Of a DNA stretch of 64,000 nucleotides, positions 11,476 to 24,751 are shown one piece after another. A program made the translations under genes and the position numbers. Origin of the DNA: a virus (lineage: Duplodnaviria; Heunggongvirae; Uroviricota; Caudoviricetes); IMG/VR virus record IMGVR_UViG_3300045051_000909, positions 64,001 to 128,000 of that record; one strand, written 5' to 3'. Below the pieces are notes generated by a model that ran no database searches, was not told the origin of the DNA, and was given only the letters and a program-made list of their open reading frames with translations. Each line of letters opens with the position of its first letter. Position 1 is the first letter of the stretch.

Positions 11476-11549
11476 TGCCCCTGGAAGGATTTGAACCCTC
11501 AGCCTGCCGGATAGAAGCCGGTCGCTCTGTCCAATTGAGCTACAGGGGC
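11476..11549 (-). tRNA. tRNA-Arg(UCU)
   Basis: cloverleaf; anticodon loop CT-TCT-AT. Confidence 0.9.
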
Positions 11550-11553
11550 TTTG

Positions 11554-11640
11554 CAGAGAGTCGAGGTCTTGATCCTCACACGCTTGTCGCGTGCCATCGG
11601 TTTAGCAAACCGCGCTGGGCGCCCGCCCAGTTGGCTCTCC
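11554..11640 (-). tRNA. tRNA-Ser(GCU), 8/4 fold
   Basis: loop TT-GCT-AA; 8-bp acceptor (one C-A), 4-bp T stem GAGG/CCTC, 6-bp D stem, long V arm. Confidence 0.8.
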
Positions 11641-11644
11641 ATAG

Positions 11645-11729
11645 AGGAAGGCAGTGGTCTTGATCCACACGCCCTTGCGAGCGCGCTCCGCTTTCGAGGC
11701 GGGCCTGGTCCCTGACCAGTTTACCTTCC
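11645..11729 (-). tRNA. tRNA-Ser(CGA), 8/4 fold
   Basis: loop CT-CGA-AA; acceptor GGAAGGTA/TGCCTTCC, T stem GTGG/CCAC, D stem CTGGTC/GACCAG. Confidence 0.8.
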
Positions 11730-11738
11730 GAATCTGAG

Positions 11739-11823
11739 CGGAGAACGGAGATCCCGACTCTCACAGACTTACGCCTGCGCACGCGCTTCCAACGCGGCCT
11801 GGTCCCTGACCAGTTCATTCTCC
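11739..11823 (-). tRNA. tRNA-Ser(GGA), 8/4 fold
   Basis: loop TT-GGA-AG; acceptor GGAGAATG/CGTTCTCC, T stem GAGA/TCTC. Confidence 0.8.
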
Positions 11824-11829
11824 AACGTG

Positions 11830-11917
11830 CAGAGGGCGGAGGACTTGAACCCCATGCCCCTTCCGGAGCACGATCTGCTTTCAAGGCAGCCTCGGTCGCC
11901 TAACCGATTCACCCTCT
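11830..11917 (-). tRNA. tRNA-Ser(UGA), 8/4 fold
   Basis: loop CT-TGA-AA; acceptor AGAGGGTG/CGCCCTCT, T stem GGGG/CCTC. Confidence 0.85.
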
Positions 11918-12473
11918 ATAGACCAATTTTCGCTAGCACTTCGTGAGCCTTCTCCTCAGAAGGATCACCCGCGCAGATCTGGAGTACCCGATGCGCCAGC
12001 TCATGAACGAGTGCTGAGTCGTCGAGGCGCAGATGCCAGCCCACAGTGATAAACGTGCCGTCTTGTTCCCCGGCGACACGGCGAAGCGACGTTATCTGGG
12101 TCCAGGTAGGTTCCCGAAACACCACCACACAACCCGCCAGTGCTTGTCTTGCCAGCGGATACGTCGGCTCAAGGTGGACGAGGAGCTCCTCAACGGTTGC
12201 ATCGAAGTCCTCGATCTTTACCGCGTACTGTTTGTCCGTCCAGCCTACCCAGAGACGGTGCGAGCTCTCAAACTTTAGGATCTTGGTTGTGCGACAGCGC
12301 TGTATAACCTGAACGATACTGACACCTATCCAGCCAGCGGCGGCTACCCAGGACACAAGCTGGGCCGGGGCTTCCTGTTGCGACACCATTGCCCATACCG
12401 CAGTTGCTAGGGCGAGTAGTGGAAACAGAACAAAAAAAAGAGCGTCGGTGAGGGTGAGCAGGCTCAGGCGCAC
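11916..12473 (-). CDS. membrane protein with HExxH metallopeptidase motif
   Basis: two N-terminal TM segments; SALVHELAHRVL. Confidence 0.65.
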   Translation of the reverse strand: MRLSLLTLTDALFFVLFPLLALATAVWAMVSQQEAPAQLVSWVAAAGWIGVSIVQVIQRCRTTKILKFESSHRLWVGWTDKQYAVKIEDFDATVEELLVHLEPTYPLARQALAGCVVVFREPTWTQITSLRRVAGEQDGTFITVGWHLRLDDSALVHELAHRVLQICAGDPSEEKAHEVLAKIGL

Positions 12474-12531
12474 AGGCGACTCCTAATCGGGATGCTCGCC
12501 CTCCTAGTATAGAGGGCGAGCGCCCCTGTAG

Positions 12532-13080
12532 TCACTTGTCCTGCACGAGCTCACCGTGCCAGTACTCAACATCGCGTAGGAACGCCTTCCAAGAGACCGG
12601 CATTCCGTTTTCATACCGCAGCGTAATGTTGAGGATGTTTGGTAGCCGCTTTGGCTGAATAGGCTCACGGAGGAGCTTCATCCCGGCCTCAGCGGGAGTG
12701 CTGTCCGCCTTCTTCTGGTTGCAAGGGATGCAGGCGACTACTACGTTCTGCCATGTCGTCTTGCCTCCCCGGCTCTTCGGCACGACGTGCTCGAAGGTGA
12801 AGTTGTGGCGCGGTACGTTTCGCCCGCAGTACTGACACTGGCCGTTGTCCCGGATCCAGATGTTGTCCCGGGAGAACCGTGCGGGGCGATCCTTCTTCCG
12901 CTTGCCTCGGATGTAGCGGACGATGGACGGTACCTTGATGGTCATGGTGACGGAGCTGACGGTACGATCTTCGTACTCCTCGACAATCTGCACCAGACCC
13001 TTGAACCAAAGTGATACGGCATGTTGCCAAGGGACCCGACGCACGGGTTCCCATTGGGCGCTAAGCACCAGCGTGTCCAT
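12532..13080 (-). CDS. HNH endonuclease (McrA-like)
   Basis: CQYCG..TFEHVVPKSRGGKTTWQNVVVACIPCNQKK; AGGAGG SD. Confidence 0.9.
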   Translation of the reverse strand: MDTLVLSAQWEPVRRVPWQHAVSLWFKGLVQIVEEYEDRTVSSVTMTIKVPSIVRYIRGKRKKDRPARFSRDNIWIRDNGQCQYCGRNVPRHNFTFEHVVPKSRGGKTTWQNVVVACIPCNQKKADSTPAEAGMKLLREPIQPKRLPNILNITLRYENGMPVSWKAFLRDVEYWHGELVQDK

Positions 13081-13109
13081 CGGGCGTCCTCCTGTTGTAA
13101 GTTTAGTTG

Positions 13110-13191
13110 TGCCCCCGGGAGGATTCGAACCTCCACGCCTTTCGGCGGCGGGGTTTAAGGCCGCTGCGTCTACCTATTCCACCACGAGGGC
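13110..13191 (-). tRNA. tRNA-Leu(UAA)
   Basis: loop CT-TAA-AC, long V arm. Confidence 0.85.
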
Positions 13192-13194
13192 GAG

Positions 13195-13277
13195 TGTCCC
13201 GGGCGGGATTCGAACCCGCAAGCCTTTCGGCAGTGGTTTTTGAGACCACCCTGTATACCAGTTCCAAGCACCAGGAC
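13195..13277 (-). tRNA. tRNA-Leu(CAA)
   Basis: loop CT-CAA-AA. Confidence 0.9.
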
Positions 13278-13280
13278 GTG

Positions 13281-13363
13281 TGGCTAAGGAGGGACTCGAA
13301 CCCTCAAGGTCTTGCGACCACCGGCTTCTAAGACCGGCGTGTATGCCATTCCACCACTCAGCC
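13281..13363 (-). tRNA. tRNA-Leu(UAG)
   Basis: loop CT-TAG-AA. Confidence 0.9.
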
Positions 13364-13373
13364 GTATCAAATG

Positions 13374-13459
13374 TGCTCGAGAGAGGAGTCGAACCTCCAC
13401 GGCCTCGCGGCCACAGGACTCTCAATCCTGCGTGTCTACCAAAGTTCCACCACTCGAGC
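13374..13459 (-). tRNA. tRNA-Leu(GAG)
   Basis: loop TT-GAG-AG. Confidence 0.9.
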
Positions 13460-13464
13460 AAGAG

Positions 13465-13548
13465 TGCTTCGGAGAGGATTTGAACCTCCACGGGTTTTAC
13501 CCCACCGGCTTCTGAGACCGGCGCGAATACCAGTTCCGCCACCGAAGC
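13465..13548 (-). tRNA. tRNA-Leu(CAG)
   Basis: loop CT-CAG-AA. Confidence 0.9.
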
Positions 13549-13554
13549 ATACAG

Positions 13555-13626
13555 TGCCCAGAGCAGGGATCGAACCTGCGACAGTCGGCTTGTAAGGCCG
13601 CTACTCTACCGCTGAGTTATCCGGGC
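13555..13626 (-). tRNA. tRNA-Val(UAC)
   Basis: loop CT-TAC-AA. Confidence 0.9.
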
Positions 13627-13633
13627 AATACGT

Positions 13634-13756
13634 TCTCGTCTGGGGCTGCATTAGCTTCACCAGCCTTGGGAGCCAGATCCGCGAACACCCCAGCCTTCAG
13701 TTGTTCCCAAGAACTTCAGGCCTCCTAAGGGGAGTGGGCTTTATACCCAGACGAGA
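13634..13756 (-). ncRNA. unassigned ~120-nt rod-like structured RNA
   Basis: terminal stem CTCGTCTGGG/CCCAGACGAG plus inner TTGGGA/TCCCAA stem; fills the gap between two tRNAs; strand inferred from the array. Confidence 0.5.
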
Positions 13757-13757
13757 G

Positions 13758-13830
13758 TCGCGACGGGTGGACTCGAACCACCGCATGACGGCTTATGAGG
13801 CCGTTGCCTTTCCATCTTGGCTACGTCGCG
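13758..13830 (-). tRNA. tRNA-Met(CAU), elongator type (Ile2 not excluded)
   Basis: loop CT-CAT-AA; C1-G72 paired; no GGG/CCC in anticodon stem. Confidence 0.8.
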
Positions 13831-13833
13831 TTA

Positions 13834-13943
13834 TAGCGGGGGCAGGAATTGAACCTGCGTAGACCGGCGTATGAGACCAGTGAGTCTTGCCTAGGCTGGG
13901 CCTTCTGAGGGCTTCTGCGTCGGCTCCACTACTCTACCCCGCA
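13834..13943 (-). tRNA. initiator-like tRNA-Met(CAU) with 33-nt D-loop insertion
   Basis: U1/U72 mismatch, A11-U24, loop CT-CAT-AC; insert at 13896-13928. Confidence 0.75.
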
Positions 13944-14011
13944 AGCCCCAGGCGGGAATCGAACCCGCCGGCTGAACCTTAGGACGGTCCGCCAGATCCA
14001 TCGTCTGGGGC
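13944..14011 (-). tRNA. degenerate tRNA-Arg(CCU) with shortened D arm
   Basis: 68 nt; acceptor and T arm intact; loop GT-CCT-AA; only 14 nt between acceptor and anticodon stems. Confidence 0.6.
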
Positions 14012-14015
14012 GACT

Positions 14016-14089
14016 TGCTCTCGGCCGGAGTCGAACCGGCAACCTCACGCTTCGGAGGCGTGCGACCTATCCAGTTGATCGACGAGAGC
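14016..14089 (-). tRNA. tRNA-Arg(CCG)
   Basis: loop CT-CCG-AA. Confidence 0.9.
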
Positions 14090-14093
14090 GTAG

Positions 14094-14166
14094 CGTCCTC
14101 GGAAGGAGTCGAACCTTCATTCCGGGTTTCGTAGACCCGTGTGATATCCAGTTTCACTACGAGGAC
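14094..14166 (-). tRNA. tRNA-Arg(ACG)
   Basis: loop CT-ACG-AA. Confidence 0.9.
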
Positions 14167-14169
14167 GTA

Positions 14170-14243
<74 letters not shown>

Positions 14244-14252
14244 ACTGTGATC

Positions 14253-14301
14253 AAAAAAACCGGCGGTGTAGGGCGACCCCGACGGAGCGGGGCCGCCCTA
14301 C
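14253..14301 (-). terminator. terminator-like hairpin after AAA ATPase gene
   Basis: 14-bp stem GTAGGGCGGCCCCG/CGGGGTCGCCCTAC, then T7 8 nt downstream. Confidence 0.5.
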
Positions 14302-14314
14302 GTACCACCACCAA

Positions 14315-15832
14315 CTATGCGCGAGCCGGAACGACGCCGTTCTTCTTCTGCGTGGTGGACAGGACCACCGTGACCTCGCCGTTCTCGTTGTCGTGCTCGA
14401 CGGCCGAGACGCGGTACTGCTCCTGCTTCTCCGCCTTCCCGTTCATGAGGTCGATGTGCGTCTGCATCCCGTCGATGGTGACCAGGATGTCCTGCTCGTT
14501 GATGCTCAGGCCGCTCTGCACCGCCGTGCCCTTGGGCAGGCGCCCGATGGCCGCGAGCTTGGCGCGCTCCACGACCTCCCGGATGATCGCCGGCCGCTGC
14601 CCGGCCAGACGCTTGCCGACCGCGCTCAAGTCGGTGCCCGGGACCATCAGGTCCCGTGCGTACAGCGTCACCAGCCGTTCGACGGCCTTGGCATCGGGCG
14701 GCCGCATCACGATGACCGCGTCGAGCCGACCCGGCCGCAGCATCGCCGGATTGATCTTCTCGGCGTGGTTGCTCGTGAGCACCACCATGATCTCCTTGCC
14801 CTTGCTGAGGATGCCGTCCAGGGTGTTCAGGATGTCGTTGACCGCCTCGTCGCGGTCCTCGTCGTCACCCCGAGTGACCTGGTCGATGTCCTCGGAGAAG
14901 ATGCAGGCCGGCTGGTACTGCATGGCGAAGGTGATCGCGTGCTCGAGGTGCTTGACCGACTTGAGGTAGATGAAGGTCCAGTCCTTCGCCTCGCACTTCT
15001 TCGCCAGGATGTTGGCCGACATGGTCTTGCCCACGCCGTAGCTGCCGGCGAGGAGCACGCCGCGCTTCAGCGGAATGCCGAGCTGGCGGCACTCCTCCGT
15101 CCGCTCCACCGGGGTGAAGAGGTTGGTCTGCATCAGCGCCTCGACCTCGCCGGGCAGGACGAGCTCGCGGTCGTCGATGCCGTGGAGGTTCATGAACTTC
15201 GGGGCGACGTCCTCGGGGCTCGTCTCGCGGGGGTTGAAGTCGTCCGGGAAGGCGACGGTGATCGCCTTGCCCTTGTAGATCGACTCCCGGTCGACGATCT
15301 TGCGAGCGAGCTCGCAGATCTCGGTCACGAGGACGCGGTGCTTGTGCTTGATCTCGCCCGCGACGGCGAAGAAGTAGCCGTCCTTGGTGACCTCGATGGA
15401 GGAGGACAGGTAGCCCTCCATGCCCGGGATCTGGAAGCGGCCCCAGGGCACCTGGACGAACTTGTTGTACGCGACCTCGATGCTCAGCATGTGCGGGGGG
15501 CGCGAACCCCAGAAGCCGGGGGTCGGCACCTGGTCGACCCAGCCGAACTTCTCGCGCAGGGCCTTGACGAAGGCGACGGCGCCGTCGAACGGGTGAGTCT
15601 TGATGACCTCGTGAACCGCGACGACCTTCTCCTCCTCCTCGCGGCGGCGGCGGATCCAGACCTCCGCGTCGGCGAGGCTCATGCCCTCGGGCATGATGAT
15701 CTTCTGGACCGGCGCCCGCTCGAGGCCGATGACGTCGAGCTTCTGGGGGTTGTTCTCCTCCATGCCCAGCTTCTTCGCCATCTTGTCGAGCTGCTTCTGC
15801 ATCTCCGCCATGTTCTGATTCTGATCAGCCAT
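14315..15832 (-). CDS. AAA+ ATPase
   Basis: GVLLAGSYGVGKT (Walker A), IFSEDID (Walker B), TSNH..PAMLRPGRLD (SRH). Confidence 0.92.
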   Translation of the reverse strand: MADQNQNMAEMQKQLDKMAKKLGMEENNPQKLDVIGLERAPVQKIIMPEGMSLADAEVWIRRRREEEEKVVAVHEVIKTHPFDGAVAFVKALREKFGWVDQVPTPGFWGSRPPHMLSIEVAYNKFVQVPWGRFQIPGMEGYLSSSIEVTKDGYFFAVAGEIKHKHRVLVTEICELARKIVDRESIYKGKAITVAFPDDFNPRETSPEDVAPKFMNLHGIDDRELVLPGEVEALMQTNLFTPVERTEECRQLGIPLKRGVLLAGSYGVGKTMSANILAKKCEAKDWTFIYLKSVKHLEHAITFAMQYQPACIFSEDIDQVTRGDDEDRDEAVNDILNTLDGILSKGKEIMVVLTSNHAEKINPAMLRPGRLDAVIVMRPPDAKAVERLVTLYARDLMVPGTDLSAVGKRLAGQRPAIIREVVERAKLAAIGRLPKGTAVQSGLSINEQDILVTIDGMQTHIDLMNGKAEKQEQYRVSAVEHDNENGEVTVVLSTTQKKNGVVPARA

Positions 15833-15901
15833 TTGGTGTTACCTCTTGGGTAGTGGTGGTGGTGATTCCCGTGCGTGAGGCACAGTTGCCTCACAGCGAC
15901 G

Positions 15902-15910
15902 GCTTATACC
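15902..15910 (-). promoter_or_regulatory. possible -10 element for AAA ATPase gene
   Basis: GGTATAAGC on - strand, intergenic, just after a terminator and about 70 nt before the ATG. Confidence 0.35.
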
Positions 15911-15944
15911 CGAGAGTCATGAATTTTTTGAAAGCCTGGGAGCC

Positions 15945-15972
15945 AAAAAAAGCCGGGTTATAGGTGGCCCGG
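15945..15972 (-). terminator. intrinsic terminator ending the large ncRNA
   Basis: CCGGG-N10-CCCGG followed by C-T7 on the - strand. Confidence 0.5.
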
Positions 15973-16445
15973 AGAGAGATAGCCTTCTCTCCCCGGGCCG
16001 GTCATTTGGCTTTCTCGCCGACCGTGGTGATCTATGGGCTCCGTTTAAGTCACAGGGTCAGTCTTAGATAGGACGCTCTAGCTTTAAGCTACCGGGCCAT
16101 AAGATATTTGGCGGCCCGGGAGGGACTTCAACCCCCATCTTCCCGTCATAGCTCCTGTAACGTTCGACTAGATCATACGGTTGTTAGTCTGAGCTTGGAG
16201 TGTAACAGCTTGAACTTGAATCTCAGTGCCTCGCTCCTAACTTACGACCTTGCCTCTCTGTGGGCTACCCGGGCGTACTAAGCAGCTACCGAATGGCTTA
16301 CACCGTTTATGGCGGTGCCCAGGTGCACGCTGGGAATTCGGTCGCTGCTTACTATGCCCGGGGGTGGTTACGAGCCACCGCTGGGGGGTCTAGGTTAGGG
16401 CTAAGCATCAGCTATCAGTCTCAGCTTGCACTCCGTAGAAACTGT
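15963..16445 (-). ncRNA. ~480-nt RNA with two circularly permuted tRNA-like modules and a minihelix
   Basis: T arm, acceptor 3' strand, closing domain, acceptor 5' strand, D arm order at 16259-16380 and 16075-16137; 14-bp hairpin 15966-15999. Confidence 0.7.
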
Positions 16446-16447
16446 TC

Positions 16448-17185
16448 CTACTTGTTGAACAAGTAGTCGAGGATCGGGGAGGTGTTGAGCTCCACCGCCT
16501 CATGCATGTTCGCTTCCTCGCGCGACGTCTTCACCGCGCGCTGGAGCTTCTCGACCCGCTCGAAGAGCTCCTTGACCTGCTGGGCCGGCATCGCGCCGGA
16601 GAACTTGACCGTGGTCCAGTAGCCGTCGAGGACGTCGGTCGTCACCTTGACTGCCTGAGCCGGATGCTCCTTGGTCGGCTGGACGATGACCTTGAAGTCC
16701 TCGACCTTCTTCTGGCGGATCGTCTCGACGGGCTCCGTGGCGTGGCAGTTCTGGTTCGAATCCCAGTGCCAGGTCTCGGTCGGATCGAGCGTCGGCAGCT
16801 TGCCGATGAAGGTCTTGAGATCGACCAGCTGCTTCTCGAGCCAGAGCAGATGCGTGGCCGGGACGCCAGTGACGAGCACCTGACCATCGACGATGACGTC
16901 GGCCTTGGCGACGCAGTTGGTCGAGTCCTTCATGCCGACGATGTTGAAGAGCTCGCTGAGGTTGCGCTTGACCTCGGTGATCACCTCGTGCGCTCGCAGC
17001 TGCACGACCTGGCGCTCGGACGGGAGCTTGTCACCCTCTTCCATCTTCGCGCGGTAGGTCTTGGCGAGACCTGCGAGCAGCGCAGGTTTGGCCATGTTCT
17101 GGTAGGCGTCGGTGAAGACCTTGTTCGCCTGGGTCTTGATGCTCTTCTCGACAGCGACAACTTGGTTCAACTTCTTGAGCTTCAT
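16448..17185 (-). CDS. uncharacterised coiled-coil protein
   Basis: 245 aa, GGGAG SD, KLNQVVAVEK..., very high GC3; function unknown. Confidence 0.85.
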   Translation of the reverse strand: MKLKKLNQVVAVEKSIKTQANKVFTDAYQNMAKPALLAGLAKTYRAKMEEGDKLPSERQVVQLRAHEVITEVKRNLSELFNIVGMKDSTNCVAKADVIVDGQVLVTGVPATHLLWLEKQLVDLKTFIGKLPTLDPTETWHWDSNQNCHATEPVETIRQKKVEDFKVIVQPTKEHPAQAVKVTTDVLDGYWTTVKFSGAMPAQQVKELFERVEKLQRAVKTSREEANMHEAVELNTSPILDYLFNK

Positions 17186-17265
17186 CTTGTCTCCCGTGGT
17201 GGACTGCGGACCCTTAGTGAGTGCCGTCAGTACTCCTCATACCACGGGCAACCAGATTTTTATGA

Positions 17266-17337
17266 TGCGCGAGGCAGGACTTGAACCTGCAACTTTCGGC
17301 GTGTCACACCGACGCTCTACCTTTGAACTACTCGCGC
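17266..17337 (-). tRNA. tRNA-Val(GAC)
   Basis: loop GT-GAC-AC. Confidence 0.88.
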
Positions 17338-17340
17338 GTG

Positions 17341-17403
<63 letters not shown>

Positions 17404-17413
<10 letters not shown>

Positions 17414-17655
17414 TTGAACTCATTGAATCTGTCCAGCGTTGCTACCTTTGCCGGATCCTCGATGTACTGCGGGCAGCCGCCATACTTCACGACGCTGAGC
17501 TGCCGCTTGGCGTCACTGTGCTTGAGATGTTCGTAATTGTGCAGCGAGCAAGTGCCCCACTCGTTGTTGGGGAATTTGCTATAGCGGCACAACGCGCAGC
17601 ACTTGAAGATTCGATACTCGATCTTCGCTAGCTTCTGTCTCTTGTTCTCATCCAT
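17404..17655 (-). CDS. small Cys-rich protein
   Basis: MDENKRQKL..CCALC..GTC..GGC; real start inside track ORF 17404..17922, whose 5' part is tRNA sequence. Confidence 0.65.
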
Positions 17656-17659
17656 GGTG

Positions 17660-17732
17660 TGGACCCGAGCGGGATCGAACCGCTGACCTCCTGAATGCCA
17701 TTCAGGCGCTCTCCCAACTGAGCTACGAGCCC
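17660..17732 (-). tRNA. tRNA-Ala(GGC)
   Basis: loop AT-GGC-AT. Confidence 0.9.
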
Positions 17733-17735
17733 GTG

Positions 17736-17808
17736 TGGAGCCAGCCGGAATCGAACCGGCGACATCCAGCTTGCAAAGCTGGCGTTCTCCCAACTGAACT
17801 ATGGCCCC
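17736..17808 (-). tRNA. tRNA-Ala(UGC)
   Basis: loop TT-TGC-AA; G3-U70. Confidence 0.92.
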
Positions 17809-17814
17809 AAAAAA

Positions 17815-17957
17815 CCCTTTCTCTCCAGCGGGACGCTGATCGCGTTCATCAAGAAAGGGGACTGCGCAATATGCGTCCCGTAATAAAGGCCGGGGGTTCG
17901 AGTGGTGAAAGGAAAAGGCCACTCATCTTCACGGACACCCCCGGTGGTCCGACCACC
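17815..17957 (-). ncRNA. structured RNA after rtcB (hairpins plus pseudoknot)
   Basis: crossed 8-bp stems 17815-22/17852-59 and 17829-36/17873-80; stem 17890-97/17937-44. Confidence 0.5.
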
Positions 17958-17962
17958 ACAAG

Positions 17963-19234
17963 CTACTCACGTACCCGATGCTTCATCTCTCGTTCGAGTC
18001 GGCGCTGGTTCTTCCACGCCTTCTCGCTTTCCTTACGGTCGCGCCTCATCTTCTCGTCGTGCCCCTTGACTGTCAAGAGAGAGTGAAGCTCGAACATCGG
18101 CGTAACAAGGTCCGCTTGGTTCTGCATGACGACCTCGATGTCCTTGTAAGCCATCGCGATCTCGTCAAGCACGCCCTTGCCGATGTGGCACTCGACGCCT
18201 TTGGTGGACTCGCGGAGGTCGTCGAGCGTGAACGTCTTGTTGGCCTTGGACCGGCTCATCTTACGTCCAGCGCCATGGCTGGCGGACATCAGGCTCTCGG
18301 GATTGCCGAGGCCTTGCACGATGAAGCTCTTGCGCCCCATGGCCCCAGGGATGATGCCCCACTGACCTTCCTTGGCTTCGATGGCGCCCTTGCGTGCGAC
18401 GATCAGTTTCTCGCCATCGATAACTTCCTCGGTGGCGTAGTTGTGATGGCAGCTGACCCGCATATCGACGGGAGCGTAATCGAGACCCTCAGCGTGCAGA
18501 GCCGACAGCAGAAGGTCCATCATCAGTTGCCGGTTCAGCCGCGCGTACTCCTGCGCGGTCTGCATGTCACGCCAGTAATCGGCGAAGTCAGGGGACTCTC
18601 GCGGAAACACGGCGATGCGCTTGTCCGGAAGATCCCGGTTGATTGGGTGTTCCTCGGCCAGGTGCGCATAGCTATCGGCGACCTCCTTGCCGAAGTTGCG
18701 TGAACCCGAGTGCAGCATGAGCCAGATGCGCCCTTCTTGATCCTCGCACACCTCGATGAAGTGATTCCCCGAACCGAGGGTTCCCATTTGACGCTTGGCA
18801 TTCTCGAGGGAACAGCGAGACTGCCTGGTCTGCTTGACGCGCTCCCACAGCTCCTCGAACTCAGGAGCCTTGGTGCCCGGATGCGCCGTCTCATGCGCAC
18901 AGCCGGTACCATTGGGGATGAACTCCTCGATGCGTAGGCGCAGACCCTTGAGGTCCTTCGGCAACATCGCGGGTGTGAGTGAGGTGCGCAGAGCATCCAT
19001 CCCGCATCCGATGTCAACACCGACGATGCCCGGGGCAACGGCGTCCTTCAACGCCACGACGCTCCCGACGGGGACGCCGAACCCCGCGTGCACGTCCGGC
19101 ATGGCGCGCACGTAGCGTGCGCTCGGCAGATTGGCGGTGTTACGAAGTTGCGTTAGCGCCTCGGACTCCACCTCATGGAGCGGCGCCCACAGCAGTACAG
19201 GCACTTGCTGCCCGTCCATCCGTGAGATCGACAT
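17963..19234 (-). CDS. rtcB: RNA 2',3'-cyclic phosphate/3'-phosphate-5'-OH ligase RtcB
   Basis: MPDVHAG, GVDIGCG, GTLGSGNHF, LHSGSR, HHNY, RKGA, SHGAGR, DEIAMAYK. Confidence 0.96.
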   Translation of the reverse strand: MSISRMDGQQVPVLLWAPLHEVESEALTQLRNTANLPSARYVRAMPDVHAGFGVPVGSVVALKDAVAPGIVGVDIGCGMDALRTSLTPAMLPKDLKGLRLRIEEFIPNGTGCAHETAHPGTKAPEFEELWERVKQTRQSRCSLENAKRQMGTLGSGNHFIEVCEDQEGRIWLMLHSGSRNFGKEVADSYAHLAEEHPINRDLPDKRIAVFPRESPDFADYWRDMQTAQEYARLNRQLMMDLLLSALHAEGLDYAPVDMRVSCHHNYATEEVIDGEKLIVARKGAIEAKEGQWGIIPGAMGRKSFIVQGLGNPESLMSASHGAGRKMSRSKANKTFTLDDLRESTKGVECHIGKGVLDEIAMAYKDIEVVMQNQADLVTPMFELHSLLTVKGHDEKMRRDRKESEKAWKNQRRLEREMKHRVRE

Positions 19235-19558
19235 GACCTTCCCCTGAATCGAAAATAAAGGGGAGCGGCGCTGGTGCGCCGTCCCCCGGGGGCGACCTGG
19301 TTAGGTCACCCTCCACCACCCATGCTGACGGGCACGGGACCGTTTGAAAGTGGAGCTGCGAAAAGCTGAAGAGCCGGATAGTACGCAGTAGGTAGTATGC
19401 ACTTGAGACCCGAGAATGTCGGTTCTGAATAATGCCCGCTTTGATGGCCGTTGGTCATGCCGGCGAGCTTTTACACGTCTACCGCTCTCTAGGCCCTTCC
19501 GGTAGCGGACGGGGTCCGCTGTCATTAGCTTTCAACTTCTCGCAGTCTGAAAGCGACT

Positions 19559-20065
19559 TTAGAGGTCGCCGTCAGCAAGATCGGACACGCCGACCTTCTC
19601 CGTGTTTCCTTCGGCGATGAGACCCTTCAGCGTGGCAAGGATTTTCTCTGCCTCGATGATCTGGGCCATCACCTGATCGTTGGTCATCACCGGCTTTGCG
19701 TGCTCCTCGGTGACATCTGCGCGCTTGATGCGGATCGTCTCATCCGGCTCGAGGTCCATGCGCTGATACATGCTCCAGCGACCTGCGTTCCGTCCCGCGA
19801 CGCCCTGCAACCGGACGGCTTCAGCCAAGGAGATCTTCTGTCCCTGGAAGTCTACCTTGACCAGCAGGTTGTACTGGGTCTGGGCTGCCTGGAGGCGGAC
19901 GATGCGGCGCTCGAGCTCGAACACCTGCGCTGCAAGCTTGGTCGGATGCTCCTTCTCCTGATCAGCGAAGCGATACATCGCCTTGTTGAACTTCCGCTCG
20001 ATGTTCTGCAACGTCAGCGAGTGCTTCTTCAGCGCCTCGCGCAACTGGTATCCTGTGACTTCCAT
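19559..20065 (-). CDS. uncharacterised coiled-coil protein
   Basis: 168 aa, GGGGAA SD, MEVTGYQLREALK...; heptad-rich. Confidence 0.8.
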   Translation of the reverse strand: MEVTGYQLREALKKHSLTLQNIERKFNKAMYRFADQEKEHPTKLAAQVFELERRIVRLQAAQTQYNLLVKVDFQGQKISLAEAVRLQGVAGRNAGRWSMYQRMDLEPDETIRIKRADVTEEHAKPVMTNDQVMAQIIEAEKILATLKGLIAEGNTEKVGVSDLADGDL

Positions 20066-20092
20066 GTGGTCTTCCCCTTGTGAATGTTTCAG

Positions 20093-20431
20093 TGGAGCTG
20101 CCGGGAATCGAACCCGGGTCCGAAGATCAATCCAGAACAGCTTCTACGAGCGTAGCCACTACCGGTGGCGCGGTACTACAGTGGAGCCCCGTTCGCAGAC
20201 GAGTGCGGGCTGCCTCTCTTCCCCGTCATGTGACCCTGTTGGTTTACCCCTGCGGCTACTAGGGTGATCTTGCCTCGGGGTGCCCACGCGGCTTTTTAGG
20301 CCGCCATCAGCTGGGCGCGCTCAACGTTGTCGTTGGCGTTTGTGTCTTTGGTCGGCTTTTAACGTGGCCTGCTGACCAACCACGGCTCGCAACCATTCTC
20401 TCTTTCACTTCGTCGAAACCAGTTCAGCCCC
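20093..20431 (-). ncRNA. ssrA: tmRNA, tag (A)ANDNVERAQLMAA
   Basis: 5' GGGGCTGAACTGGTTTCGAC, G3-U70, 3' GGTTCGATTCCCGGCAGCTCCA; tag ORF 20296-20337. Confidence 0.93.
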
Positions 20432-20526
20432 GAAACCACGGGGTGGAGCCTCGCGGCTCCGCAGTCGCTGTGCGTCCGCCTGTGGTCAATTCCACAGAGT
20501 ACCCGTGGGTGCTTCAACAACTACGG

Positions 20527-21552
20527 CTAGGCGCGCTTCCCGTTGCCCATGCCGTTGTTCTGCTGCGAGGCCGTCTGCATGGCCACCGCGAGCGCCTGCT
20601 GGCCGGACGCCGACTCGAGGGCCTTGCTGGCGATGGTCTCGGCGCGCATGTTGGCGGCGTCGATCTGGGTGCGCAGGGAGTCGATGAGCTTCTGCTGCTC
20701 GTTGATGGTCTTGGTCAGCGAGGCGATCTCGTTGCTCGAGACCTTCAGCGCCACCTCGGCGTCCTTCTTGATCATCTCGATCTGGTGGTTGAAGTCCTTG
20801 GTCAGCCGGTTGGTCGTGATGGCCTCGACGGTCTTCTCGGCCTTGGCGATGACCGACGGCATCTCGTCGACGGTCTTCTTCAGCGCGGCGAACTCCTGCT
20901 CCTTCGCCGCCATCACCGTCTCCCGCTCCTTCATGTTCTTGTTGAACGCATCGGCGCGGTCCCGCTCTTGGGCCTGCTGAACCCGCATCTGCTCCTTCCA
21001 GGCGTCCTCCGCCTGGCGGCGCTGCTGCCCGAGCTGGTACGCGTACTCCGCCTCCTCGCGGGTGCGCTCCTGGCGCTCTTCCTCATCGAGCTCGGTGATG
21101 CGCTTCTTGAGGGCGGCCAACTGCTGGTCCAGCTCCTCGCGACGGGCGAGGAAGGTGGTCTCGAGCTCCTTCTGCTTGGTGTCGTACTCGGCGACGAGGG
21201 TCTCGATGCTGGCCTTGGCGATGTCGATCTTGTACAGCCGCTCGAGCTCCGCCTTCTCGAGCTTCACCGCCTCGCGGGTCTCCTCGAGCTCCTTGACGGT
21301 GTTGGCGAACTGCTCGCTCACGCCTGCGAGGGTCTTCTGGAGGGTGAGGCCGACGTCGGTGAGGTTCTTCACCGCCTTCTCGACGGTGACCTCGTTGGTG
21401 GCGTTGCGGATCTCGGTCTCGCGCTGCGCCTGGAGCGCGCGCTCGGTGGGCGTGGCGGTCTTGACCGTCATCGTCTCAGCGCGAACGTCCTCGAAGCTCT
21501 GCTTCACGTCGGCCTTGGTCCGGGTGTTGCGATTGCTGCGCTTGCTTGCCAT
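20527..21552 (-). CDS. long coiled-coil protein
   Basis: GGAG SD before ATG at 21552; E/K/A-rich heptads; very high GC3. Confidence 0.85.
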   Translation of the reverse strand: MASKRSNRNTRTKADVKQSFEDVRAETMTVKTATPTERALQAQRETEIRNATNEVTVEKAVKNLTDVGLTLQKTLAGVSEQFANTVKELEETREAVKLEKAELERLYKIDIAKASIETLVAEYDTKQKELETTFLARREELDQQLAALKKRITELDEEERQERTREEAEYAYQLGQQRRQAEDAWKEQMRVQQAQERDRADAFNKNMKERETVMAAKEQEFAALKKTVDEMPSVIAKAEKTVEAITTNRLTKDFNHQIEMIKKDAEVALKVSSNEIASLTKTINEQQKLIDSLRTQIDAANMRAETIASKALESASGQQALAVAMQTASQQNNGMGNGKRA

Positions 21553-21605
21553 GTCGTTGCTCCGAAAATGTGGGTGGTGTCCTACACCGTCGAACCACAA
21601 TGGTC

Positions 21606-22037
21606 TCAGGTGCTGGTGCTTATACCACGACCCTCTGACAATTTATGTTCATGCGGGCAACGACCGTCAGGCGAATGTGCACGGCCGCAATTGCAGTTAT
21701 AGCAGAGCAACCGATATTCAGGAGGGAACCCTTGGCTACGAATCTGTTGGTATACGCGCGCTGAGCTGCCCAGTGAACGCCGATGCGTGGCACCGTTATT
21801 ATTTATGTGATCGATGGTCAAGAATCTCGGTTCTAACTCGCCACAACATGCGCACTTTCCGCCGTATGCCCGCAGCACCTCGTCGCGAATCTGAGTACGG
21901 TATTGGCGTTGATACGTGGCTTCCTTAGCTAAAAACGAGGCATCTACTTGTTTACGCCGTTTACGTAACTCTCTCTGATACTTCGCGCTTTTGCTAACCG
22001 GAACAGAGTTGCTACGAAACGCTAAACCCACGCGCAT
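21606..22037 (-). CDS. HNH endonuclease
   Basis: CACCG..LTIDHINNNG..LLCYNCNC; more AT-rich than neighbours. Confidence 0.85.
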   Translation of the reverse strand: MRVGLAFRSNSVPVSKSAKYQRELRKRRKQVDASFLAKEATYQRQYRTQIRDEVLRAYGGKCACCGELEPRFLTIDHINNNGATHRRSLGSSARVYQQIRSQGFPPEYRLLCYNCNCGRAHSPDGRCPHEHKLSEGRGISTST

Positions 22038-22062
22038 GCGATCACTCGTAGTGTTGAGAGAA

Positions 22063-22135
22063 TGCCAGCTCCCGGAATCGAACCAGGCTCGTCCGCTCTT
22101 CAGGCGGCTGCGATCACCAGATGTGCCTAACTGGC
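22063..22135 (-). tRNA. tRNA-Phe(GAA)
   Basis: loop CT-GAA-GA. Confidence 0.85.
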
Positions 22136-22140
22136 AAGAG

Positions 22141-22212
22141 CGCTCCGTACGGGACTCGAACCCGTCTCATCGCATAGACAGTGCGACAGCCTCACCCGAT
22201 GCTTAACGGAGC
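22141..22212 (-). tRNA. tRNA-Asp(GUC)
   Basis: loop CT-GTC-TA. Confidence 0.85.
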
Positions 22213-22371
22213 CCGCGGTCCCCACGGCTCACCGGTAGGCTCGATGCGCACAATTTCGCAAGTCGCGCACTCAATTCGGAGAGCTGGGAGGTACGTGTTG
22301 CCGCACTGCTCAAGCTTTGCACTCGAGGTTAGTGCGGGTTTACCACACTTCGGGCAGGGTTTGGGGTCCAT
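22192..22371 (-). CDS. small Zn-ribbon protein (59 aa)
   Basis: MDPKPCPKCGK...IECATCE; fills the gap between tRNA-His and tRNA-Asp; below track cutoff. Confidence 0.5.
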   Translation of the reverse strand: MDPKPCPKCGKPALTSSAKLEQCGNTYLPALRIECATCEIVRIEPTGEPWGPRAPLSIG

Positions 22372-22389
22372 GTCCGAATACTAGCCGAT

Positions 22390-22465
22390 TGGGGTGGCCG
22401 GCGGGAAACGAACCCGCATCCCCTGGGTCACAGCCAGGTACTCTAGCCAATTGAGCTACGGCCAC
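22390..22465 (-). tRNA. tRNA-His(GUG), C73 and encoded CCA, no encoded G-1
   Basis: loop CT-GTG-AC; acceptor GTGGCCG/CGGCCAC; position -1 is T (22466). Confidence 0.88.
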
Positions 22466-22466
22466 A

Positions 22467-22539
22467 TAGGGGCAAGCGGGTTCGAACCGCTGACCTGTCG
22501 GTTATCAACCGACTGCTCTACCAACTGAGCTATGCCCCA
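22467..22539 (-). tRNA. tRNA-Ile(GAU)
   Basis: loop TT-GAT-AA; U1/U72 mismatch. Confidence 0.88.
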
Positions 22540-22548
22540 ACAACACTG

Positions 22549-22622
22549 TCTAGGTGGCAGGATTTGAACCTGCGATCTCTCGCATCCGAAGCGAGCGCGA
22601 TACCAGGCTTCGCTACACCTAG
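22549..22622 (-). tRNA. tRNA-Pro(CGG)
   Basis: loop TT-CGG-AT; C1-G72. Confidence 0.9.
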
Positions 22623-22701
22623 ATAGCCGGTCAAACCTCTTGCGAGGCCCCCGTGCGCTTCGGTCCTGCGACCGAGGGGCTTACGTTAACCGCCGAGCGT
22701 G

Positions 22702-22775
22702 TCAGGATGGCAGGATTCGAACCTGCGGCCTCCTGCGTCCAAGGCAGGCGCGCTACCAGACTGCGCTACATCCTG
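22702..22775 (-). tRNA. tRNA-Pro(UGG)
   Basis: loop CT-TGG-AC. Confidence 0.9.
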
Positions 22776-22784
22776 ATGAAAAGG

Positions 22785-22901
22785 GCCGGCGCGCTACCTC
22801 TACGCTACGGTCTACTCAACGTACTCGGCTAATCTGTCTCGCGAGACTCAGATCAGTTGCTACGCCTTTTAACCGACGGGATTCGAACCCGCTCCTCCGG
22901 C
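22785..22901 (-). ncRNA. circularly permuted tRNA-like RNA (YrlA/Y-RNA-like architecture)
   Basis: GCCGG-AGGA-GCGGG TTCGAAT CCCGT-CGGTT...GACCG-TAGCGTAGAGGTAGCGC-G-CCGGC; opened at the anticodon, acceptor capped by a hairpin. Confidence 0.7.
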
Positions 22902-22908
22902 GGCTCTG

Positions 22909-22982
22909 TCAGCGTGGCCGGATTCGGACCGGCGACCTCCTGCACCCCAAGCAGGCGCTCTACCAGGCTGAGCCACACGCTG
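22909..22982 (-). tRNA. tRNA-Pro(GGG)
   Basis: loop TT-GGG-GT; T loop TCCGAAT. Confidence 0.88.
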
Positions 22983-23480
22983 TCATGTACTGATGACCAT
23001 CTTCACGACTACTGCGACGATGGCTACGAAGAGAAACACACTGAACACTCGTAGATGCCAAAGCACATAACCACGAACGATGCGGAACCGCTCAGCGTCA
23101 CAGTTCGGGTTGGGTGTAGGCATCCACCAGCCCGACAACCAGACGATGCAATCGATGCCAGCCAGGACGCCCTCGACGCGCGCGATCCAGTGGTACGCCC
23201 AGAACGACGCTCCTGTGTGCCAAGCGATGGCAAGGATGATCGGGGCTGCACTGATCAGTCCTGTCTGCTGTGGGTTGAACTGTCCCTGGAATTCAACCCG
23301 GGCCCATACAGGGCTCCACCAAGGCCGCCCTGTCCAATCAGGCCAGAGCCGGAAGTGGAAATCCGTCGCGCCATAGAGCTTGGCCACAGCTGCGTGGGAC
23401 AGCTCATGCAGTGCGAGGTGTAGAAGGATACTAAACGGCAGCCAGATGAGAGCGATGTGTAGTGAGTTCATGCTGCCCAT
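22983..23480 (-). CDS. membrane metallopeptidase (M50-like)
   Basis: LALHELSH within TM segments, ISAAP, CDAERF; start at 23471 or 23480. Confidence 0.7.
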   Translation of the reverse strand: MGSMNSLHIALIWLPFSILLHLALHELSHAAVAKLYGATDFHFRLWPDWTGRPWWSPVWARVEFQGQFNPQQTGLISAAPIILAIAWHTGASFWAYHWIARVEGVLAGIDCIVWLSGWWMPTPNPNCDAERFRIVRGYVLWHLRVFSVFLFVAIVAVVVKMVIST

Positions 23481-23484
23481 TATA

Positions 23485-23556
23485 TACCCCCGGCGAGTAT
23501 CGATCTCGCACTTCCGGCTTGAAAGGCCAGCGTCCAGGCCACTAGACCACGGGGGC
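23485..23556 (-). tRNA. tRNA-Glu(UUC)
   Basis: loop CT-TTC-AA; atypical T loop ATCGATA. Confidence 0.85.
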
Positions 23557-23562
23557 GCGACA

Positions 23563-23634
23563 TGACGCCACGGGGATTCGAACCCCGACTACCGACGTGA
23601 GAGGCCGGCTTCCTAACCATTAGAAGATGGCGCC
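23563..23634 (-). tRNA. tRNA-Glu(CUC)
   Basis: loop CT-CTC-AC. Confidence 0.9.
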
Positions 23635-23637
23635 GTA

Positions 23638-23710
23638 AGGGTTGTCCGGGGATCGAACCCGGCTACGCGGTTTTGCAGACCGCTGCCTTCGCCGTGAGGG
23701 CCAACAACCC
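23638..23710 (-). tRNA. tRNA-Cys(GCA)
   Basis: loop CT-GCA-AA; U73. Confidence 0.88.
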
Positions 23711-23715
23711 ATCAG

Positions 23716-23789
23716 TCCTCGCGGGTGGGCTCGAACCACCAACCTCCCGCTTATAAGGCAGGTGCTCTGACCCGTTGAGCTACACGAGG
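23716..23789 (-). tRNA. tRNA-Ile(UAU)
   Basis: loop CT-TAT-AA; full cloverleaf; A73. Confidence 0.88.
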
Positions 23790-23795
23790 ATCAAG

Positions 23796-23868
23796 AGCGG
23801 CACGCGGGATTCGGACCCGCGACCTTCTGCTTGGCAAGCAGACGCTCTACCAACTGAGCTAGTGCCGC
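23796..23868 (-). tRNA. tRNA-Gly(GCC)
   Basis: loop TT-GCC-AA. Confidence 0.9.
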
Positions 23869-23874
23869 ATAGTG

Positions 23875-23948
23875 CGTACCCGCCAGGACTTGAACCTGGA
23901 ACATGCCGGTTAACGGCCGGCCACTCTAGCCAATTGAGTTACGGGCAC
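23875..23948 (-). tRNA. tRNA-Asn(GUU)
   Basis: loop CC-GTT-AA (C33). Confidence 0.85.
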
Positions 23949-23968
23949 ATTCATCGTGAATTTCAGCA

Positions 23969-24041
23969 AGCCGGCGGCGAGAATCGAACTCGCGACCTAC
24001 CGCTTACAAGGCGGGTGCTCTACCAACTGAGCTACGCCGGC
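23969..24041 (-). tRNA. tRNA-Thr(UGU)
   Basis: loop CT-TGT-AA. Confidence 0.92.
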
Positions 24042-24056
24042 GTTTACGAAGTAAAG

Positions 24057-24129
24057 CAGGGGAGGAAGGAGTCGAACCTTCAACCTTGCGGTTCAGAGCC
24101 GCCTGCGCTGCCAATTGCGCCACTCCCCT
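24057..24129 (-). tRNA. tRNA-Gln(CUG)
   Basis: loop CT-CTG-AA. Confidence 0.88.
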
Positions 24130-24146
24130 ATGGAGTTAAGATCGAG

Positions 24147-24217
24147 CTGGGGCACTAGGAGTCGAACCTAGATAGGCGGATTCAAAGTCCGCCGTCCTGC
24201 CTTTGGACGATGCCCCA
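24147..24217 (-). tRNA. tRNA-Gln(UUG)
   Basis: loop CT-TTG-AA. Confidence 0.9.
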
Positions 24218-24222
24218 ATGAG

Positions 24223-24293
24223 AGCGGGTGAAGGGAGTCGAACCCTCACGTCCGGTTTGGAAGACCGGAACTCTACCGTTGAGCTACACCCGC
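24223..24293 (-). tRNA. tRNA-Gly(UCC)
   Basis: loop CT-TCC-AA. Confidence 0.92.
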
Positions 24294-24297
24294 ATGA

Positions 24298-24370
24298 TGC
24301 CCCTGGAGGGATTCGAACCCACACTGAACCGCTTAAAAGGCGGAGGTGCTAGCCATTACACTACAGGGGC
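24298..24370 (-). tRNA. tRNA-Lys(UUU)
   Basis: loop CT-TTT-AA. Confidence 0.88.
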
Positions 24371-24373
24371 GTG

Positions 24374-24445
24374 TGGGTCCGGAGAGACTCGAACTCTCGT
24401 TGCCCGGGTAAGAGCCGGGGATCCTAGCCACTAGACGACGGACCC
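24374..24445 (-). tRNA. tRNA-Lys(CUU)
   Basis: loop CT-CTT-AC. Confidence 0.88.
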
Positions 24446-24454
24446 AAAACACCG

Positions 24455-24475
24455 CTATTCAGTTTTCAATGAACA
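24455..24475 (-). promoter_or_regulatory. rrn-type boxA-like antitermination element
   Basis: TGTTCATTGAAAACTGAATAG on the - strand in a tRNA spacer. Confidence 0.6.
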
Positions 24476-24510
24476 GGAGCTATCCGGTCAGGCCGGCATC
24501 GCTCTGTCAG

Positions 24511-24595
24511 TGGACGGGGTGGGAATCGAACCCACTGGTATCCCGGAGGAGGGCGGTGTTACAGACCGCTGCCGTACCATTACGGCGTCCCGTCC
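24511..24595 (-). tRNA. tRNA-Tyr(GUA)
   Basis: loop CT-GTA-AC; long V arm. Confidence 0.88.
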
Positions 24596-24598
24596 ATA

Positions 24599-24671
24599 AG
24601 CCCGAAGCCGGAGTTGAACCGGCGACCTACTGCTTACGAGGCAGTTGCTCTACCAACTGAGCTACTCGGGC
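24599..24671 (-). tRNA. tRNA-Thr(CGU)
   Basis: loop CT-CGT-AA. Confidence 0.92.
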
Positions 24672-24680
24672 ACTTCTTTG

Positions 24681-24751
24681 CACGGCGTGTAGGAATCGAA
24701 CCCACGTAGCGGGTTTTGGAGGCCCGCGTCTTACCATTAGACGAACGCCGT
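24681..24751 (-). tRNA. tRNA-Trp(CCA)
   Basis: loop CT-CCA-AA; G73. Confidence 0.88.

Follow-up and report, generated by a model that had tools for sequence, protein, structure and literature searches.

The window analysed here is a 64,000-base stretch of phage DNA, bases 64001-128000 of the 194,266-base IMG/VR virus record IMGVR_UViG_3300045051_000909, which is rated complete and represents a 194-kb rhizosphere phage with a GC content of ~58-60%. On the minus strand of the window, at positions 11554-11917, lie four serine tRNA (tRNA-Ser) genes in the tandem order UGA, GGA, CGA, GCU, separated by spacers of 6, 9 and 4 nt and followed after another 4 nt by tRNA-Arg(UCU). The cluster sits near the 3' end of a long tRNA array, after five Leu genes and an HNH endonuclease gene. 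All four genes have an 8/4 fold, that is, an 8-bp acceptor stem and a 4-bp T stem in place of the canonical 7/5 arrangement:

11830..11917, minus strand: tRNA-Ser(UGA), 88 nt, 8/4; anticodon at 11883-11881; A1-U72 and G73; D loop AGGC, T loop UUCAAGU; 94.9 bits with covariance model R1
11739..11823, minus strand: tRNA-Ser(GGA), 85 nt, 8/4; anticodon at 11790-11788; G73; D loop AGG, T loop GUCGGGA (G54.G58); 88.8 bits with R1
11645..11729, minus strand: tRNA-Ser(CGA), 85 nt, 8/4; anticodon at 11696-11694; U73; D loop AGG, T loop AUCAAGA (A54.A58, A60); 96.3 bits with R1
11554..11640, minus strand: tRNA-Ser(GCU), 87 nt, 8/4; anticodon at 11606-11604; G73; D loop GGGC, T loop AUCAAGA, G1.U72 and a C.A at acceptor pair 7; 95.3 bits with R1

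The initial annotation of this DNA had proposed an 8/4 fold for all four genes, D arms like those of selenocysteine tRNA (tRNA-Sec), and a U discriminator in Ser(CGA), and each of these proposals was borne out. Unconstrained minimum free energy (MFE) folding produced the 8-bp acceptor, the 4-bp T stem and the 6-bp D stem in three of the four genes, with z-scores against shuffled sequences of -2.3 to -4.5 across the set (-4.0 for Ser(GGA), -4.5 for Ser(CGA)). The exception was Ser(GCU), in which pairs 7-8 open because pair 7 is C.A. In the predicted layout, the 8-bp acceptor is followed by two A residues, a 6-bp D stem with a 3-4-nt loop, a long variable arm and a 7-nt T loop. Standard pairs fill 8/8 acceptor positions in Ser(UGA), Ser(GGA) and Ser(CGA), counting the U.G at pair 7, and 7/8 in Ser(GCU). 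The T stems of the UGA, GGA, CGA and GCU genes are GGGG/CCUC, GAGA/UCUC, GUGG/CCAC and GAGG/CCUC, whereas the additional T pair of a 7/5 register would be U.C, U.C, U.U and U.G, respectively. The variable stems comprise 6-7 bp, and the discriminators read G, G, U, G in the same order, U73 of Ser(CGA) being confirmed by the sequence. The only one of the four genes that ARAGORN calls, Ser(UGA) (its call spans 11829-11917), is also drawn by that program as 8/4, and family covariation agreed with both.

A covariance model built from the four window genes was used to gather relatives, and ~300 were collected from phages and bacteria. IMG/VR was scanned twice by motif and then with the model, giving 160 matches at E<1e-6, and in bacteria (one genome per species, stringent pattern) the model identified 151 genes at 60 loci. 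A T-arm motif served as the seed of the family sample, and the covariance model itself guided the large alignments, which inflates the paired fractions derived from them; the RNAalifold run on 42 sequences and two anticodon-stem pairs lying outside the model are free of this fitting bias. Among 132 distinct viral sequences, 97.2% of the alignment cells held standard pairs and 28/28 pairs showed compensatory change, while shifting the pairing partner by 1-3 columns lowered pairing to 37-47%. T-stem cells were 100% and D-stem cells 96% paired. Acceptor pair 8, which defines the 8/4 fold, was kept in 131/132 sequences with all four Watson-Crick combinations represented (GC 63, AU 28, UA 26, CG 11). 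Independent MAFFT alignment and RNAalifold prediction on the 42 diverse members likewise returned the 8-bp acceptor and the 4-bp T stem, with pair 8 present in 42/42 (GC 18, AU 11, UA 8, CG 5). These data showed that the 8/4 fold of the genes is established by covariation.

Misreading of canonical 7/5 or selenocysteine-type tRNAs is almost certainly not the explanation. The 7/5 register was tried and rejected, its defining pair failing in 92/132 sequences. As for selenocysteine, bacterial tRNA-Sec (RF01852) shares with the window genes the 8-bp acceptor, the 6-bp D stem with a 4-nt loop, the extended anticodon stem and the long variable arm, and it is first charged by seryl-tRNA synthetase (SerRS); the Rfam tRNA-Sec model just attains its cut-off on Ser(UGA) (47.8 bits vs 47). 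It differs in its 13-bp acceptor-plus-T branch (8/5) and its UCA anticodon, compared with 12 bp and sense Ser anticodons here, and the other three Ser genes were unmatched by the Sec model, so the bacterial tRNA-Sec class was rejected as well.

The alignments also revealed an anticodon arm that had not been described in the initial annotation. It consists of 4 bp, a 1-nt 3' bulge and two more pairs, and the MFE fold of Ser(CGA) displays the bulged 6-bp stem directly. The two further pairs were predicted by RNAalifold and hold in 120/129 and 101/131 sequences of the large alignment, the former with CG 60, GC 38, AU 18 and UA 4. A plain 5-bp anticodon stem was rejected, as pair 27:43 holds in only 52/132 sequences against the 101/131 and 120/129 of the bulged register. 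Linker bases are absent between the D, anticodon, variable and T helices, and the variable arm, which begins with a conserved G.U, directly abuts the T stem. Acceptor pair 7 is U.G in 85/132 members. The C.A of Ser(GCU) is isosteric with this family U.G, and the same C.A recurs in a GCU gene from a Myxococcaceae metagenome-assembled genome (MAG) that is 88% identical to the window gene. Ser(CGA), too, has its closest relatives mostly among isoacceptors of its own kind, some of which also carry U73.

Three of the T loops (GUCGGGA and AUCAAGA twice) lack U54, as had been noted from the sequence, and these loops had been regarded as eroded. The family data contradict the latter view. In aligned viral relatives, U55 is kept in 144/150, C56 in 149/150 and a purine at position 57 in 150/150, and the two D-loop G residues in 129/150 and 149/150, so the elbow contacts can form. 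Covariation within the T loop was assessed only in the 136 distinct sequences outside the search seed, which removes the motif bias. Positions 54:58 were U.A in 64, A.U in 22, G.G in 19 and A.A in 15 of these, and positions 54 and 60 were both A in 28, both U in 49 and mixed in 13 (Fisher p ~8e-12, uncorrected for relatedness). AUCAAGA, GUCGGGA and UUCAAGU are recurrent variants of the family, GUCGGGA occurring chiefly in GGA isoacceptors. An A54 with A60 is a signature of eukaryotic initiator tRNA (PMC3950347), and such a loop can therefore be functional; that tRNA likewise combines A54 with A58 and A60 in place of T54 and a pyrimidine at position 60, although it belongs to an unrelated lineage with a different role, so the likeness is an analogy of folding and not homology. 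Judged from these patterns, the T loops appear to be working, not decayed.

The non-canonical T loops, the C.A mismatch of Ser(GCU) and the failure of the standard tRNA model might suggest decaying genes or tRNA-like elements that serve outside translation, such as pseudogenes or regulators. We regard this as extremely improbable. Every helix covaries over ~280 distinct relatives, the anticodons keep to Ser, and the elbow bases are conserved. The C.A matches the geometry of the conserved U.G and also occurs in the 88%-identical relative. The phage has no Ser tRNAs besides these four.

Serine identity is evident from the family as a whole. The anticodons GGA, CGA, UGA and GCU account for 149/150 viral relatives, the remaining one being ACU, and for 149/150 bacterial ones. 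Among the 132 viral sequences the acceptor carries G1-C72 in 124, G2-C71 in 131 and A3-U70 in 123, and these three pairs reportedly belong to the E. coli Ser identity set of Normanly et al. 1992 as SerRS determinants. At the discriminator position, 112 of the 150 viral relatives have G and 31 have U. Two members of the family bear non-Ser anticodons on the 8/4 Ser body, ACU in viral locus L085 and UAG in one bacterial gene; from their sequences both are candidates for missense allo-tRNAs.

All six Ser codons are in use in the phage genome, and the complete genome contains no other Ser tRNA, no SerRS-type class II synthetase core and no CCA-adding enzyme, so the four genes constitute the complete Ser-decoding set of the phage and require host enzymes. 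8/4 allo-tRNAs with Ser identity have been shown to be processed, serylated and used by E. coli ribosomes (PMC5389517). We therefore consider it highly likely that the window encodes four functional elongator tRNA-Ser molecules of the published (8/4) tRNA-Ser class, derived from an accessory mobile lineage. By analogy with the allo-tRNAs, we infer that these four are processed, charged and used in translation. The genes would probably be co-transcribed with the remainder of the minus-strand array and excised by host RNase P and 3' processing enzymes. Since CCA is encoded in none of the four, a host enzyme would add it. Host SerRS would then charge the tRNAs via the long variable arm, G73 or U73 and the G1-C72/G2-C71/A3-U70 pairs, after which EF-Tu would deliver them; the L-shape is expected to be kept because the acceptor and T helices total 12 bp. 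The predicted decoding assigns UCC and UCU to GGA, UCA and its neighbours to UGA, UCG to CGA, and AGC and AGU to GCU, so that together the set would read the six Ser codons.

Several points weigh against this assignment. Compatibility with the host SerRS is an assumption, and U73 of Ser(CGA) is less favourable for an E. coli-type SerRS. Ser(GCU) combines the C.A at acceptor pair 7 with a G.U at pair 1. The T-arm-motif seeding and the model-fitted alignments inflate the family pairing figures. Finally, the runs containing the stretch are four rhizosphere metagenome DNA runs, one of them its possible source, and no RNA run is listed among them.

The precedent named in the initial annotation (Mukai 2017) is correct. 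(8/4) tRNA-Ser has been reported from phage tRNA clusters, including those of alphaproteobacterial phages, and from proteobacteria (PMC5389517). The window genes share with that class the 8-bp acceptor, the 4-bp T stem, the long D stem closed by a tetraloop or a shorter loop, the long variable arm, G73 or U73 and the Ser anticodons; they agree with it in every feature that could be tested, and there is no essential difference. Two smaller departures were seen. A pyrimidine at position 20 (Y20) is a criterion for the allo-tRNAs of that study; a C closes the 4-nt D loops of Ser(UGA) and Ser(GCU), whereas the 3-nt AGG loops of Ser(GGA) and Ser(CGA) are without such a base. Moreover, an 8/4 tRNA-His lies beside the 8/4 Ser genes in some of the published phages, whereas the tRNA-His of the window phage is 7/5. 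That gene (22390-22465, minus strand) has no encoded G-1, a T preceding G1, and it has C73; among the genes inspected it is the only one with an encoded CCA. The molecule type is thus already published, and the window provides a well-documented new example, not a new kind. The present analysis adds structural rules that hold across the family, evidence that the genes are accessory and mobile, and a measure of how many such genes annotation overlooks. The rules sharpen the family description with the U.G (or C.A) at pair 7, the bulged 6-bp anticodon stem, the absence of linkers, and the covariation of T-loop positions 54:58 and 54/60; of these, the bulged stem, U7.G66 and the A54/A60 rule may already be depicted in Mukai 2017.

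Standard scanners had been expected to miss such genes, and this proved to be the case on a large scale. ARAGORN calls one of the four window Ser genes and 29/150 relatives, and the Rfam tRNA model RF00005 gave no match on the four, even at E<=10. In published phages, we found three copies in Caulobacter phage BL57, three in Microcystis phage Mwe-JY26, three in Phaeobacter phage MD18 and two in Stenotrophomonas phage DLP_6, and all 11 lie in unannotated gaps of the annotated tRNA arrays of these four GenBank records. Ser tRNAs of the 8/4 type are therefore systematically missing from annotation, ARAGORN recovering ~1/5 of them. Phage and bacterial arrays that seem to be without Ser probably have Ser genes, and the published low Ser frequency in arrays may be partly an artefact of missed 8/4 genes. 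BL57 (L002:903-992) and Mwe-JY26 (L003:756-844) each also have an annotated 'tRNA-Lys' of 89-90 nt, far too long for a normal tRNA-Lys, which may be another non-canonical or miscalled tRNA.

The complete four-member set had been singled out as striking, and here the wider survey disagrees: all four anticodons occur in at least seven other viral loci, and bacterial loci contain at least 12 tandem clusters of four genes. Tandem clusters of 2-5 genes are usual in bacteria, with the order UGA-GGA-CGA recurring, and most carriers belong to the Alphaproteobacteria, Myxococcota or Planctomycetota, with some from candidate phyla. We examined two cultured bacteria, Chondromyces apiculatus DSM 436 and Roseibium sp. 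SCP15. Both possess a complete, dispersed canonical Ser set (GCU, UGA, GGA, CGA) and, additional to it, one single 8/4 Ser cluster each. In both, the canonical genes fold as 7/5, their D arm having a 3-bp stem and an 11-nt loop and their T loop reading UUCGAAU. Canonical class II tRNA-Ser shares with the 8/4 family the anticodon set, the long variable arm, G73 and the G1-C72/G2-C71/A3-U70 pairs; it differs in these 7/5, D-arm and T-loop features, in having U8, and in the 1 nt between variable arm and T stem, where the 8/4 family has none. The Chondromyces cluster (L339, contig C24 83000-93600) belongs to a ~10-kb array of 38 tRNAs in which Leu genes are followed at the end by an HNH gene and the four 8/4 Ser genes, the same layout as the end of the phage array. 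The 8/4 Ser tRNAs of these two bacteria do not form the housekeeping set but an accessory one, located on mobile arrays. The lineage lives in phage tRNA arrays and long bacterial tRNA arrays, parallel to the canonical 7/5 Ser tRNAs of the hosts, and the extra clusters together with the frequent HNH gene mark the 8/4 Ser genes as cargo of mobile tRNA arrays.

In the window, the array around the cluster has 41 tRNA genes, shares its strand with the HNH gene and includes these features:

11476..24751, minus strand: tRNA array, 38 ARAGORN tRNAs, three extra Ser genes and a transfer-messenger RNA (tmRNA), covering all 20 amino acids
12532..13080, minus strand: HNH endonuclease gene, 182 aa, Pfam HNH_5 at residues 82-136; the Ser cluster follows 615 nt downstream
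17963..19234, minus strand: RtcB RNA ligase gene inside the array, Pfam RtcB at E 1e-109, a context of tRNA repair
16448-17185, minus strand: DUF7873 gene inside the tRNA array
11916..12473, minus strand: 185-aa open reading frame (ORF), flanked by the HNH gene and the Ser cluster

An ARAGORN run on the whole genome returned the identical set of 38 tRNAs and one tmRNA, all within the window. The drawings read for the five Leu, Tyr, His, Arg, Lys and Asp tRNAs of the array were 7/5 with ordinary T loops.

Homologs of the HNH protein with 33-52% identity were present in 35/123 loci with 8/4 Ser genes (11 viral and 24 bacterial, among them L252, L268, L291, L248 and L287), and in most of the 35 the first Ser gene lies 48-350 nt downstream of the HNH gene on the same strand. 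Two Myxococcota-type MAGs contain both the closest HNH homologs and the nearest relatives of Ser(GCU) and Ser(CGA), which suggests that the HNH gene and the Ser tRNAs travel together. In the reverse test, 18 viral HNH relatives in two clades had no 8/4 Ser gene within 2.5 kb. The link between HNH gene and Ser cluster is thus frequent, not obligatory. HNH homing endonucleases conserved beside long tRNA arrays have been described, with a role for RtcB next to them (PMC8421152), and the T4 endonuclease SegB carries or amplifies neighbouring tRNA genes (PMC2330249, PMC13096335). The window resembles these systems in its accessory array of ~40 tRNAs, its same-strand HNH gene and RtcB gene, and an endonuclease that would carry neighbouring tRNAs. 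It differs in that the phage HNH gene does not head the array but lies within it, shortly ahead of the Ser cluster, and in that SegB is a GIY-YIG enzyme. On this analogy, the HNH gene probably encodes a homing-type endonuclease that travels with the tRNA cluster.

The close linkage could be read differently: the HNH protein would cut either the canonical Ser tRNAs or the corresponding genes, the 8/4 tRNAs would be resistant replacements, and the pair would form a competition or addiction device. The immediately upstream, same-strand position of the HNH homolog in most of the 35 loci having one would fit such a nuclease-immunity module, as would weak HNH-motif matches to PtuB-type defence nucleases and to a retron HNH model. 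Those matches, however, cover the generic HNH motif only, the best PDB match being the small HNH protein 4H9D, with the HNH domains of IscB and Cas9 scoring equally. In addition, 88/123 Ser loci are without such a gene in the flanking DNA examined, the 18 HNH relatives of the reverse test are without an 8/4 Ser gene within 2.5 kb, and HNH genes beside long tRNA arrays have already been read as homing endonucleases (PMC8421152, PMC2330249). We consider this module very unlikely.

The unusual tRNA body could also bear on defence evasion, which would add to the assignment as functional elongators and not replace it. The 8/4 fold, the tiny D loop and A/G54 would let these tRNAs survive tRNA-Ser-directed nucleases or toxins, so that the phage translates on when host Ser tRNAs are destroyed. 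Such defences exist: the four Ser tRNAs of E. coli are all depleted by the HNH nuclease of a type I-A retron (PMC12475279), and the MenT3 toxin favours tRNA-Ser via the variable arm (PMC11541572). The four window genes are without the usual substrates for 4-thiouridine at position 8 (s4U8; they have A8), 5-methyluridine at position 54 (m5U54; A/G54 in three) and dihydrouridine (no U in the D loops), and the absence of these U residues would be in line with evasion, as would the RtcB repair ligase within the phage array and the presence of the 8/4 set as an extra copy beside the canonical set in the two bacteria. On the other side, the retron nuclease also cuts a Ser tRNA of phage T5 (PMC12475279). 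SerRS depends on the variable arm, so 8/4 tRNAs should remain recognisable to toxins that read this arm. The spread over many phyla is as compatible with a generally portable tRNA as with an arms race. By comparison with the published defences, toxin evasion by 8/4 Ser tRNAs is plausible, and as the explanation of the odd body it is possible but doubtful. Resistance of the body to tRNA-Ser-directed defences, if it exists, would account for the carriage of an entire isoacceptor set in 8/4 form. A broader combination, in which the HNH gene and the 8/4 Ser cluster form a self-spreading anti-defence cassette, is less likely still. In such a cassette, a full set of Ser tRNAs would escape nucleases or toxins directed at canonical tRNA-Ser by virtue of the 8/4 branch, the mini D loop, the T loop with a purine at position 54 and the bulged anticodon stem, and the HNH protein would either mobilise or amplify the cluster or itself be a tRNA-Ser nuclease.

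The proteins of the phage say little about its taxonomy or host: PHROGs gave almost nothing, and the RtcB relatives are scattered across many hosts. The nearest HNH and Ser(GCU) relatives, both in Myxococcota MAGs, offer only a hint of the host. The 185-aa ORF at 11916-12473 had no family match and no homolog in other 8/4 Ser loci. Its product has two hydrophobic N-terminal segments, predicted by eye to be helices, and a HELAH (HExxH-like) motif, and its TAG stop codon extends over bases 1-2 of tRNA-Ser(UGA). A promoter-like site, GTGACT-18 nt-TATACT (12506-12535, minus strand), lies between the HNH gene and this ORF and overlaps a GC-rich hairpin. Elsewhere in the array, tRNA-Leu(CAA) (13194-13277, minus strand) and tRNA-Tyr(GUA) (24510-24595, minus strand) are drawn as 7/5 by ARAGORN and score below the Rfam tRNA gathering score.

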